Source: a virus
Taxonomy: Duplodnaviria; Caudoviricetes
DNA length: 64,000 bases
IMG/VR virus record: IMGVR_UViG_3300005611_001698
Span: 1-64,000 of that record
Strand: one strand, 5' to 3'
The position numbers and the translations under genes were made by a program. Positions 42,428 through 61,925 of the stretch are shown one piece after another (position 1 is the stretch's first letter; each line of letters opens with the position of its first letter). The notes beneath the pieces were generated by a model. The model was not told the DNA's origin. It did not search any database and saw only the letters and a program-made list of their open reading frames with translations.

Positions 42428-43060
42428 TTATGCCCAATCAAGTGCTCTCGCAACTGTGGGATACTGATGTGCAAAGATAGTCTTACACTCCTCTGCAATC
42501 TCCATATGCTCCTTCTGAGTGCCGTTAGCAGACCTCAGAGAGATGTAATGAATCCAACTACGACAAGATCCTGTCATGTAGATTCTAGTGGGTGTAGCAA
42601 GCGGTAGAACAAACCTTGCACATTCCTTAGCAACTCCTGCTTCAAGCATATCTTCATACAGATCTACTGCATGATCAAACTGTAAACGAATACGTTTGCG
42701 GAAAGACTCTGATACATCACGGGGAAGATCATCAATAGAGTTCTGACGATTCTTTGTATCCTGACGACGAAGTTCGGGAATAGAAATCTTACCCAACTCT
42801 GTGCTATCAGCATATCGTTGAGAAAACTCTTGAAACGTAAATGAACGGTGCCGCAAAATTTGTGCCGCAATCGCTCTTGTAGTTTCAATTTGTAGAGTCA
42901 TGTATGCTTGTTCAAACACAGACCAATGCTGATGCTTGATGCAATATTTTAAAAGACCTTCAAAACTTTCATTGTCTTGATTCTTTGGATTGCTCACACG
43001 GGCAATATACGCCATGTTCTGTTCAGGACTTGGTGTTGCCTGAATTAGTTTTACTTTCAT
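42428..43060 (-). CDS. thyX: FAD-dependent thymidylate synthase
   Basis: HWSVFE, RHRSFTFQEFSQRY (RHRx7S motif), KECARFVLP. Confidence 0.95.
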   Translation of the reverse strand: MKVKLIQATPSPEQNMAYIARVSNPKNQDNESFEGLLKYCIKHQHWSVFEQAYMTLQIETTRAIAAQILRHRSFTFQEFSQRYADSTELGKISIPELRRQDTKNRQNSIDDLPRDVSESFRKRIRLQFDHAVDLYEDMLEAGVAKECARFVLPLATPTRIYMTGSCRSWIHYISLRSANGTQKEHMEIAEECKTIFAHQYPTVARALDWA

Positions 43061-43248
43061 CAGCAATCCTCGCAATCCTCTTCTTTATGTTTCTTTCTGA
43101 TCTTTTTAAGTTCTTTCATCTCTTCCTTGATCATTTTGTATGCATCTTCGGAAGAAATCTTTCGTGCCATTTCCATAGCAACGATAATCTCTACTCTCGT
43201 TCCATAATGAGATAGAGCTTTTTCAAAACAGTTTAGTTCTTCGTACAT
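43060..43248 (-). CDS. Hypothetical protein
   Basis: ORF coupled to thyX. Confidence 0.6.
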   Translation of the reverse strand: MYEELNCFEKALSHYGTRVEIIVAMEMARKISSEDAYKMIKEEMKELKKIRKKHKEEDCEDC

Positions 43249-43459: not shown

Positions 43460-43497
43460 ATTATACACAAAAAAAGAGGGAGTGTCAATCTCCCTCT
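43460..43497 (-). terminator. Terminator with an overlapping sigma70 promoter
   Basis: AGAGGGAG-attgaca-CTCCCTCT-T tract; TTGACA in the loop, 17 nt, then TATAAT. Confidence 0.75.
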
Positions 43498-43505
43498 TTG
43501 ATTAT

Positions 43506-43640
43506 TCACTTTTTGATTTGAGCAAGTTGTGCTTGCTGACGACGCTGTTCTTTTTCAAGTTGATCTTTGATCAGTTGAAGAACATTGATTTTGTGATCTT
43601 CGACATTGTACTTAACACCACGATAAGTTGCGGTAGTCAT
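43506..43640 (-). CDS. DUF4278-like 'downstream peptide' (44 aa)
   Basis: Manual translation MTTATYRGVKYNVEDHKINVLQLIKDQLEKEQRRQQAQLAQIKK; YRGVxY motif; AGGAG RBS. Confidence 0.75.
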   Translation of the reverse strand: MTTATYRGVKYNVEDHKINVLQLIKDQLEKEQRRQQAQLAQIKK

Positions 43641-43699
43641 TTGTTTACTCCTGAATGAATGGGGGGTTTAACCTTTTACCCTTTCGGGTGATCCGTTTC

Positions 43700-43882
43700 C
43701 CGTTCCTTCAATCGTTTGCGTCCCAGTTACAACCTCTTTCTGTTGCGTCTTTAATAGTATTGACAATTTCTACTTTGATTAAATCACTCATGTCTTGATT
43801 AGCCTTTGCCCTAGCAACAAGTTGCTTAGCATCAGCACAAACCAATTCAGCAGAAAGTAAAAATTCTAACATAGGATGAACG
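43700..43882 (-). ncRNA. Glutamine-riboswitch-like aptamer 2, split by an ORF
   Basis: 5' arm CGTTCATCCT (43882-43873) and 3' part GGGACGCAAACGATTGAAGGAACGG (43724-43700), parallel to aptamer 1. Confidence 0.5.
43708..43872 (-). CDS. Small hypothetical protein (54 aa) embedded in the RNA element
   Basis: Manual translation MLEFLLSAELVCADAKQLVARAKANQDMSDLIKVEIVNTIKDATERGCNWDAND. Confidence 0.6.
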   Translation of the reverse strand: MLEFLLSAELVCADAKQLVARAKANQDMSDLIKVEIVNTIKDATERGCNWDAND

Positions 43883-43884
43883 CT

Positions 43885-43925
43885 CCGTTCCGCGATTTAC
43901 TTGCGATCCCAAATGGGATTGAACG
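43885..43925 (-). ncRNA. Glutamine-riboswitch-like aptamer 1 (glnA / Downstream-peptide class)
   Basis: CGTTC-A-ATCCCAttTGGGAT-CGCAAGTAAATCGCG-GAACG: P1 CGUUC/GAACG plus a P2 hairpin, upstream of a YRGVxY peptide. Confidence 0.65.
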
Positions 43926-43932
43926 TAAGGTC

Positions 43933-43984
43933 ATTATAGACCATATGCCTTATATATGCAAGTAGTTTTGTAAAATGTGATACA
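43933..43984 (-). promoter_or_regulatory. Sigma70 promoter with an upstream NtcA-like box
   Basis: TTGCAT-17nt-TATAAT (43961-43933); TGTA-N8-TACA (TGTAAAATGTGATACA) at 43969-43984. Confidence 0.65.
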
Positions 43985-47059: not shown

Positions 47060-47150
47060 AAACCATCAGGGAAATGGTGGTGTTACTATTCCTCAGGCAC
47101 CCTCATCCTGAGGTATGAGAGACGTGTTTATACTCCCCATAGGTCTCGGT
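47060..47150 (-). ncRNA. PhotoRC-II-like structured psbA 5' leader
   Basis: Hairpins GAGAC..GTCTC, CCTCAGG..CCTGAGG and ACCAcCA..TGaTGGT, with complementary loops (GAGGG/TCCCT); the family is known upstream of cyanophage psbA. Confidence 0.7.
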
Positions 47151-47202
47151 TAATGAGAGTTGCAACTGTTTAAGAAACGTTACATTCCTTAACGTGTTGA
47201 TG

Positions 47203-61734: not shown

Positions 61735-61754
61735 TTTATATTTCAAGGGTTAAT

Positions 61755-61925
61755 ATGCTCGCCACCTGGTTTTTGAAAAGAACCAGGAAACTTTGCGGAT
61801 GTAGCGCACCACTTGCTCTTTATACGGAAGCAAGAAACCGTCGAGGGGTCCCGACCAGTGCTGTTATAGACCATCCGTGTCTTGGGTTTGACTCCACCAC
61901 CTAGTTTCAGGAACTAGGAAACTCA
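61755..61925 (-). ncRNA. manA-like structured RNA (three GUUUC-stem-GUGG hairpins)
   Basis: Three related hairpins visible; lies directly 5' of GDP-mannose genes and near tRNAs, as described for manA RNAs. Family assignment is from memory, not a covariance-model search. Confidence 0.6.

Follow-up and report, generated by a model that had tools for sequence, protein, structure and literature searches.

Riboswitch aptamers are usually treated as compact, non-coding domains that lie upstream of the genes under their control, and both Rfam and the surveys of tandem riboswitches assume that they are organized in this way. Two classes of glutamine riboswitch are relevant for the work described here. 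In the Glutamine-I class (Gln-I, glnA RNA, RF01739), exemplified by the gifB leader of Synechocystis, a CGUUCA strand is followed by a short, G-C-rich P2 helix, CGCAAGUA, P3 and GAAGGAACG, and the sensor precedes a DUF4278/IF17-like gene (Klahn et al. 2018; PMC6212724). An anti-Shine-Dalgarno pairing that competes with the aptamer was proposed to constitute the gifB ON switch, in which binding of glutamine releases the pairing of the ribosome-binding site (RBS) and translation is turned on (PMC6212724; PMC6698751). The Glutamine-II class (Downstream-peptide motif, RF01704) has a CGUUCA..CGCA..GGAACGG core and is found with YRG short peptides of marine picocyanobacteria. Both motifs, as well as tandems, were described by Weinberg (2010), where no ORF is mentioned. 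Tandem, pseudo-cooperative arrangements of glutamine riboswitches were later surveyed by Sherlock et al. (2022), who reported 157 doublets and 4 triplets, allowing no intervening ORF and dropping gaps of more than 300 nt (PMC9481103).

The DNA that was analyzed here, to which we refer as the window, comprises positions 1 to 64,000 of the 194-kb virus record IMGVR_UViG_3300005611_001698, which is from an ocean cyanophage. The presence of a PhotoRC-II RNA (73 bits, 47078-47172, minus strand) and a wcaG RNA (64 bits, 61751-61842, minus strand), both above the Rfam thresholds, and of several tRNAs indicates a T4-like cyanomyovirus. All elements of the sensor unit are on the minus strand as well, and they include two glutamine cores that are separated by a linker of only 2 nt (AG). 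The compact core 1 (43885..43925) consists of CGUUC (43925-43921; CGUUCA 43925-43920), helix P2a AUCCC/GGGAU (43919-43915/43910-43906) with loop AUUU, the segment CGCAAGUAAAUCGC / CGCAAGUAA on the 3' side of P2a, and GGAACGG (43891-43885); P2a covaries in 93 relatives. After the linker follows CGUUCA-UCCU-AUG (43882-43870), in which the 5' half of core 2 (43872..43882) is formed by CGUUCA (43882-43877) and the 5' arm of P2b, UCCUA (43876-43872), the final A of this arm being the A of a start codon. The 3' half of core 2 (43700..43725) is composed of the 3' arm UGGGA (43725-43721) and CGCAAACGAUUGAAGGAACGG (43720-43700), within which CGCAA (43720-43716), a P3 strand CGAUU (43714-43710), the stop codon UGA (43710-43708) and GAAGGAACGG (43709-43700) can be distinguished. 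The frame between the two halves ends UGG GAC GCA AAC GAU UGA, after which comes AGGAACGG (43725-43700). An initial annotation of this DNA had listed both cores, CGTTCA-TCCT-ATG, the distant GGGA-CGCAA and an ORF ending in WDAND-stop, and all of these are present.

Comparison with the known classes points to Gln-I. The short P2 directly after CGUUCA, followed by CG(G/C)AA, is found in both cores as a helix of 4-5 bp with compensatory changes, and the unit precedes a DUF4278 or YRG 'downstream peptide' gene, as expected for the glutamine riboswitch regulon. Core 1 remains below the Rfam gathering scores, both with the Glutamine-II model (30.1 bits, threshold 33) and with the Glutamine model (28.5 bits, threshold 35), whereas the split core 2 is not detected by Rfam models at all. 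The phage RNA shares the CGUUCA..CGCA..GGAACGG core and the association with YRG peptides with Glutamine-II, but it has no P2 helix flanking GGAACGG: a search for the pseudoknot of this class gave no conserved flanking helix, the second stem of the model being aligned with positions that do not pair. The phage RNA differs from the Glutamine-I leaders described so far in that P2 of core 2 closes a loop of 143-185 nt that is a complete protein gene, in that a second core lies within P3, and in that aptamer strands double as the start region, codons and stop of that gene.

The 54-codon frame is a real gene, and it is located exactly where the initial annotation had placed it, in the P2 loop of the second aptamer. 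It occupies the entire P2b loop (43708..43872), belongs to the T4-GC 430 / phrog_504 family, and encodes a 54-aa product ending in WDAND that matches phrog_504 from end to end (E 1.8e-18). By tblastn the gene was found in 178 cyanophage records, all with less than 60% identity. Interior dN/dS is 0.31 (94 distinct family members), the loop length holds one value modulo 3 in 120 of 130 sequences, Cys12, Glu35 and Cys48 are invariant in the family, and an AlphaFold2 model gives a confident two-helix hairpin (pLDDT 85), confidence being lowest for the C-terminal tail that is dictated by the RNA. A Foldseek comparison of this model with the PDB gave nothing at E <= 0.001, Pfam gave no match, and a structure search of the Atlas produced only unnamed viral clusters; a search for homologous proteins returned only the cluster of the window itself, and a single-protein locus search gave four loci. 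HHalign joins the protein to a 64-aa family starting MLSLALIFFSH.. at 94.5%, part of which is due to the RNA-imposed DAND tail that both have in common. Several further and very divergent two-cysteine families occur in the second loop, some with N-termini that resemble signal peptides (MKFLLPLLLLTSPTYA..). The conserved junction also occurs in metatranscriptome contigs, one of which (218 nt) is nearly identical to the window over the stretch that comprises core 1, the ORF and core 2; such contigs from RNA libraries are no measure of transcription, transcript ends or expression level.

Evidence for pairing of the distant P2b arms was obtained from 132 distinct sequences, derived from 29 loci that were selected by protein similarity alone and 120 IMG/VR contigs that were selected by a 15-nt junction. 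The layout is present in 29/29 of the protein-selected loci and in about 105 of the 120 junction-selected contigs, the latter having been picked by a pattern that includes the AG linker and the P1 strands, and this is far beyond chance. Arm pairs 1-4 can form in 99-100% of the 132 sequences and pair 5 in 85%, while positions 6-8 are at the chance level of about 45%. When the arms are in register, 96.5-96.8% of the cells are paired, as compared to 20-63% in slid registers. In a MAFFT alignment, four of the five pairs have changed on both sides, which applies to 32 cells, and 96.5% of the cells are paired, against 36-62% in slid registers. Shuffling reproduced the observed values in 0/500 and 0/2000 cases, the former in the MAFFT count. 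The compensatory variants comprise replacements of U-A by C-G (6) and of C-G by U-A (20), as well as UCUAU/AUAGA (TCTAT/ATAGA) and UCCUC/GAGGA (TCCTC/GAGGA). The effect on the encoded protein is visible in the variant CCCCA/UGGGG, with which the protein ends WGAND, and in UCCUA/UAGGA, which places a UAG stop codon within the stem. One-sided changes from C to U give G-U pairs, and the arms of the window are among these cases.

It has to be considered that the two halves do not fold together, being a recombination scar or a decoy, or that the frame is an untranslated RNA expansion segment. The 5' halves of both cores are nearly identical, which makes mispairing conceivable, and in T4-like phages repeated regulatory sequences are sites at which small genes are shuffled. 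This explanation is nevertheless extremely improbable. A scar or decoy is contradicted by the compensatory changes in four of five arm pairs and by the preference for cognate arms, since all four Watson-Crick pairs are formed in 82/93 loci with the cognate arms and in only 5-11/93 with those of the other core. The absence of translation is contradicted by the dN/dS value, the indels in threes, the three invariant residues and the confident predicted fold. The comparison of relatives thus shows UCCUA/UGGGA, 150 nt apart, to be a true helix.

The last codons are also conserved at the nucleotide level. In the last four codons the number of synonymous differences per site is 0.061, against 0.69 in the interior, an 11-fold suppression. 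The terminal Asp codon is GAC in 88/88 cases, although some 92% of the interior Asp codons are GAT, and GCA is used for Ala in 94/94 and AAC for Asn in 79/81 cases. Both expectations that the initial annotation had attached to an alignment of homologues, i.e. covariation of the distant arms and conservation of the WDAND codons at the nucleotide level, are borne out by these data. The same 20 nucleotides at the end of the nested gene serve as protein code, as P2 arm and conserved CGCA strand, as a strand of the inter-core helix P3, and as the anti-Shine-Dalgarno sequence of the downstream DUF4278/IF17-like gene, which is an unusually dense overlap of functions. In solved glutamine riboswitches, the CGCA strand lines the ligand pocket.

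The two cores are connected by a second covarying helix. Its 5' strand, AAUCG (43893..43897, minus strand), directly follows AAGUA in core 1 and pairs with CGAUU (43714-43710) in the Asn-Asp-stop region of core 2; in relatives these strands are commonly AGUCG and CGACU, and one pair differs in the window. Among the 132 sequences, 98.3% of the P3 cells are paired, whereas flanking positions reach 0-1.5% and slid registers 1-40%. Compensatory variants (AAUCG/CGAUU, AGUCA/UGACU, AGACU/AGUCU) involve three of the five pairs and were matched by 0/2000 shuffles, and they derive from few lineages, about 10 sequences. When the cores are read together, the order CGUUCA(1)-P2a-CGCAAGUA-P3-GAAGGAACG(2) corresponds to the Gln-I consensus of Rfam, and P3 then encloses the second core. 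It is also only in this combined reading that the three-way junction AAGUA...P3...GAAGGAACG, with the loop E region, is found, since a single core carries only half of it. The covarying 5-bp helix between the cores therefore leads us to read them as one interlocked Gln-I-type junction. P3 suggests a nested topology; alternatively, P3 could be a pseudoknot between two aptamers that lie side by side. The P1 strands CGUUC and GAACG are present and invariant, so that the pairings CGUUC(1)-GAACG(1) and CGUUC(1)-GAACG(2) are equally compatible with the alignment. The minimum-free-energy fold of the whole leader of the window includes the long-range arm pairing, yet it is not better than that of shuffled sequences (z -1.34).

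The 3' end of the sensor can also pair with the leader of the next gene. The sequence CGAUUGAAG (43706..43714, minus strand), which overlaps with the final two codons of the nested gene as well as with its stop codon, is the candidate anti-Shine-Dalgarno element, and its partner is CAUUCAGGAG (43648..43657, minus strand), which includes the Shine-Dalgarno sequence GGAG (43651-43648) of the downstream gene. Both RNAalifold, applied to relatives after in silico removal of the ORF, and the minimum-free-energy fold of the Bellamy leader pair C-GA-CUGAAG with CUUCAG-GA-G, and 97.7% of the cells are paired in register. The middle base of the stop codon (UGA or UAA) covaries with its partner (C or U): G occurs with C in 57 and with U in 30 sequences, A with U in 31, and A with C in none (Fisher 9e-12). 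The same position in ORF-less loci shows 35 A-U, 20 G-C, 5 G-U and 0 A-C combinations (Fisher 1.3e-11). Since the covariation does not depend on the presence of the ORF, the anti-Shine-Dalgarno helix belongs to the riboswitch, and the nested gene borrows it as a stop.

Downstream of core 2, a spacer of 59 nt and AGGAG are followed by a 44-codon gene (43506..43640, minus strand) encoding MTTATYRGVKY.., which has the YRG motif of the downstream peptides described by Weinberg (2010) and is IF17-like in the sense of Klahn et al. (2018; PMC6212724). It matches phrog_5049, and Pfam gives a weak match to DUF4278 that does not reach the cut-off (E 0.043; S-RIM2 homologue, 0.0031); in S-SSM5 the homologue carries a DUF4278 annotation. 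Between the sensor and the downstream RBS, the leader of the window carries a small covarying hairpin module, AAC..GGAUC-ACCC-GAAA-GGGU-AAAAG-GUU (43670..43697, minus strand), which is present in about one-fifth of the relatives and has no Rfam match. Its stem varies between ACCC/GGGU, CAGC/GCUG, CUGC/GCAG and CACC/GGUG, its loop is of the GNRA or UUCG type, and its closing helix is AAC/GUU or CUC/GAG. Another observation on the leader is that CGUUCAU is complementary to the AUGAAC with which the common MNTL.. version of the downstream gene begins, and the two are paired in the minimum-free-energy fold of the Bellamy leader (L030:563-712). In the window this gene starts with AUGACU, which makes the pairing weaker, and it may be due to chance.

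The initiation region of the nested gene likewise lies in the sensor. A GGAG (43883..43886, minus strand) at 10 nt before the AUG is its probable Shine-Dalgarno sequence, which agrees with the proposal in the initial annotation of an RBS that overlaps the 3' end of core 1; the same GGAG could also provide the loop and edge of a GAACG-GAG-CGUUC hairpin. In 29/29 protein-selected loci that bear the ORF, GGAACGG is followed by a linker AG, AGC or AGG, whereas ORF-less second aptamers have AU, GUA, AUUU, etc. in this place, with AG in 0/65 (Fisher 7e-25), and thus GGAG is kept only where a gene starts 10-11 nt downstream. The start codon follows CGUUCA after 4-5 nt, and the stop codon is within the aptamer in 128/129 sequences. 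According to the comparative model, the initiation region (GGAG, CGUUCAUCCU and AUG) consists wholly of strands that are paired in the folded sensor.

These results bear on the serial arrangement that was originally proposed, in which an independent aptamer 1 gates the RBS of the ORF, and ribosomes in transit do no more than destroy an independent aptamer 2 that gates the downstream peptide. The GGAG that overlaps the 3' end of core 1 and tracks the presence of the ORF is in line with such a relay, and the 3' half of core 2 has to open when a ribosome reads the last codons. However, the AAUCG/CGAUU bridge ties the cores together, which speaks against two independent switches in series, and ORFs nested in core 1 (see below) have no upstream aptamer that could gate them. 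The idea that ribosome transit disrupts aptamer 2 survives in part, as the last codons indeed lie in core 2, but disruption is not the only consequence: the end of the ORF is the anti-Shine-Dalgarno sequence, and a ribosome at that position would open the downstream RBS instead of merely inactivating a sensor. We consider the serial relay quite unlikely, and prefer the interlocked double aptamer.

Natural variants illustrate the modular nature of the arrangement. In phage Bellamy, which is without the nested gene, core 2 is CGUUCAUCCC-UUCG-GGGACGCAAACGACUGAAGGAACGG, with both halves joined by a tetraloop, and this ORF-less core scores 34.5 bits (E 4.7e-6) across the full RF01739 model, for which the gathering score is 35. 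The 3' half of core 2 in the window is identical in sequence to this compact aptamer. A pattern scan of IMG/VR gave 66 further ORF-less variants. Core 1 can enclose a gene as well, as found in 33 of 127 loci and also in phage records. This gene encodes a 66-aa two-cysteine family (MLSILLALTLAHH..WHMSCERF..GQCEG), which is unannotated in Sf-FS3; its kinship with the 54-aa protein was considered and is not convincing (HHalign only 20%). The core-1-nested gene has its stop codon, UAG, UAA or UGA, within the 3' arm, and this codon changes in concert with the 5' arm, which is UCCUA, UCUUA or UCUCA. In loci with this gene the -10 box ends 6-8 nt before CGUUCA, so that the 5' untranslated region would consist only of the P1 and P2 strands, without a Shine-Dalgarno sequence. 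All four states occur, with loci that have no nested gene, one in either core 1 or core 2, or one in each core.

A scan of genome contigs with the 15-nt junction gave at least 120 matches, and these are uninformative with respect to hosts because they are mostly chance matches in unrelated bacteria, with no cyanobacterial sequence among the matches listed. Twelve of the 120 bacterial matches listed for GGAACGGAGCGTTCA also have CGCA..GGAACGG just upstream. Many of these 12 are from Sphingomonas, Sphingomicrobium and other alphaproteobacterial metagenome-assembled genomes, and they might be glutamine-riboswitch-like tandems outside the cyanobacteria.

The variants could also be explained by assuming that the P2 loop takes up any insert and that a small gene has settled there as a passenger. 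The sensor would then control the DUF4278 gene only, and translation of the passenger would be without regulatory meaning. The tolerance of the P2 loop of core 1, which ranges from 2 to 37 nt among relatives, the existence of all four states, and the fact that the ORF makes no difference to the anti-Shine-Dalgarno pairing or to the aptamer cores are compatible with this explanation. It does not account for a start codon that always abuts the stem, for a stop codon that is inside the aptamer in all but one of the sequences, leaving zero non-coding nucleotides in the loop, or for a linker GGAG that arises only when an ORF follows. Moreover, since the initiation region of the ORF is made of sensor strands, folding and initiation cannot be independent. 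A purely passive passenger is therefore unlikely in our opinion.

Transcription of the unit probably starts from a promoter that can be read from the sequence at 43933..43961 (minus strand), with TTGCAT (43961-43956), a spacer of 17 nt and TATAAT (43938-43933), leaving 7 nt between the end of the -10 box and CGUUCA of core 1. It is absent from the list produced by a consensus scan because its -35 box matches at only 3/6 positions. Relatives have TTGACT-N17-TATAAT, or a late-type TATAAATA with a hairpin, at the same place. The T4-late-type TATAAATA box plus hairpin heads the leader in 12 of the loci, and a sigma-70-type promoter is found in other phages, so that the sensor unit seems to be under early or late control, depending on the phage. 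An NtcA-type box, GTATCACATTTTAC (GTA-N8-TAC; 43970-43983, minus strand), precedes the -35-like hexamer, the distance between them being 8 nt. Its centre is located some 51 nt before the likely transcription start, which is one helical turn beyond the classical -41.5, and such a box also occurs in Bellamy, Sf-FS3, S-H9-2 and one further locus (L002). The unit is closed by an intrinsic terminator with a 10-bp stem and a T run (43473..43499, minus strand). At 43460-43499 (minus strand) the terminator hairpin overlaps with a perfect TTGACA-17-TATAAT promoter of the next gene, the -35 box lying in the hairpin loop, an arrangement that resembles the promoter-early stem-loop cassettes of T4-type phages. 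A ThyX-like gene (42428-43075, minus strand) is located two genes downstream of the sensor unit.

We regard it as fairly probable that the phage RNA is an interlocked double Gln-I (glnA RNA) aptamer in which a 54-codon gene is looped out from P2 of core 2, and that by means of this one RNA a choice or a coupling between two small proteins is made according to nitrogen status and translation. There is probably competition on this RNA between the sensing of nitrogen, the translation of the nested gene and the expression of the gene that follows. By analogy with gifB, a fold stabilized by glutamine would draw CGAUUGAAGGAACG into P3, loop E and P1, which would free the RBS of the DUF4278 gene and turn this gene on. 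Judging from the anatomy, the same fold would pair GGAG-CGUUCAUCCU-A, whereby the start of the nested gene would be buried and its translation turned off. Conversely, ribosomes on the nested gene would be expected to unfold the arms and to hold the sensor open, while those terminating at its stop codon may cover the anti-Shine-Dalgarno sequence and expose the downstream RBS, resulting in translational coupling. Because the last codons of the nested gene are themselves the anti-Shine-Dalgarno sequence, a terminating ribosome would melt both the aptamer and the OFF helix. On balance, the system could work as a reciprocal toggle, by coupling, or in both ways, since terminating ribosomes that open the downstream RBS make a simple reciprocal logic ambiguous. 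A more specific proposal, which we put forward tentatively and with slightly less than even confidence, is that the cyanophage glutamine riboswitch is a two-way translational toggle that encloses one of the genes it controls: ligand-induced closure would silence the gene in the loop and free the next RBS, and ribosomes in the loop would keep the sensor from closing and link their termination to initiation at the downstream gene.

Separate elements of this scheme have precedents. In the 'Min Jou' interaction between the MS2 coat and replicase genes and in the trp and ermC leader-peptide attenuators, ribosomes on an upstream frame melt a pairing that hides an RBS or choose between RNA folds. The phage system is different in that the competing fold is a candidate metabolite sensor and the upstream frame encodes a conserved 54-aa protein instead of a mere sensor peptide. 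ORFs are also looped out of structured RNAs in group I introns, and HEARO RNAs house an ORF in a loop, but in neither case is the host RNA a metabolite sensor. A small ORF is wired to a riboswitch in the B12 (PMC11260477) and Mbox (PMC12810186) systems of Mycobacterium tuberculosis, where it is downstream of the aptamer and not inside it. As in the tandem glutamine riboswitches (PMC9481103), there are two glutamine cores per leader, but in the phage a covarying helix connects them, so that they are not independent units, and the second one contains an ORF.

The architecture has good support from the comparison of relatives, and it seems that no description of it has been published. A literature search for an ORF inside an aptamer found no description, the work of Ames and Breaker (2011), which may treat long P2 inserts, being outside its coverage, and cyanophage papers name only the riboswitch, without the nested-gene layout. 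A known aptamer that is interrupted by a whole gene escapes Rfam and tandem searches, and the survey of Sherlock et al. (2022) would miss the phage layout because no ORF was allowed between aptamers and gaps of more than 300 nt were dropped. If the toggle proposal is correct, the phage RNA would represent a new class of expression platform, in which translation of a gene starts and stops on the strands of the aptamer itself and which is modular, with zero, one or two nested genes. The layout predicts that metabolite sensing and translation compete on a single mRNA. It also points to the two small two-cysteine phage proteins and the IF17-like peptide as a nitrogen-responsive module, which, being carried by abundant ocean viruses, bears on the way in which phages read and rewire the nitrogen status of their hosts.
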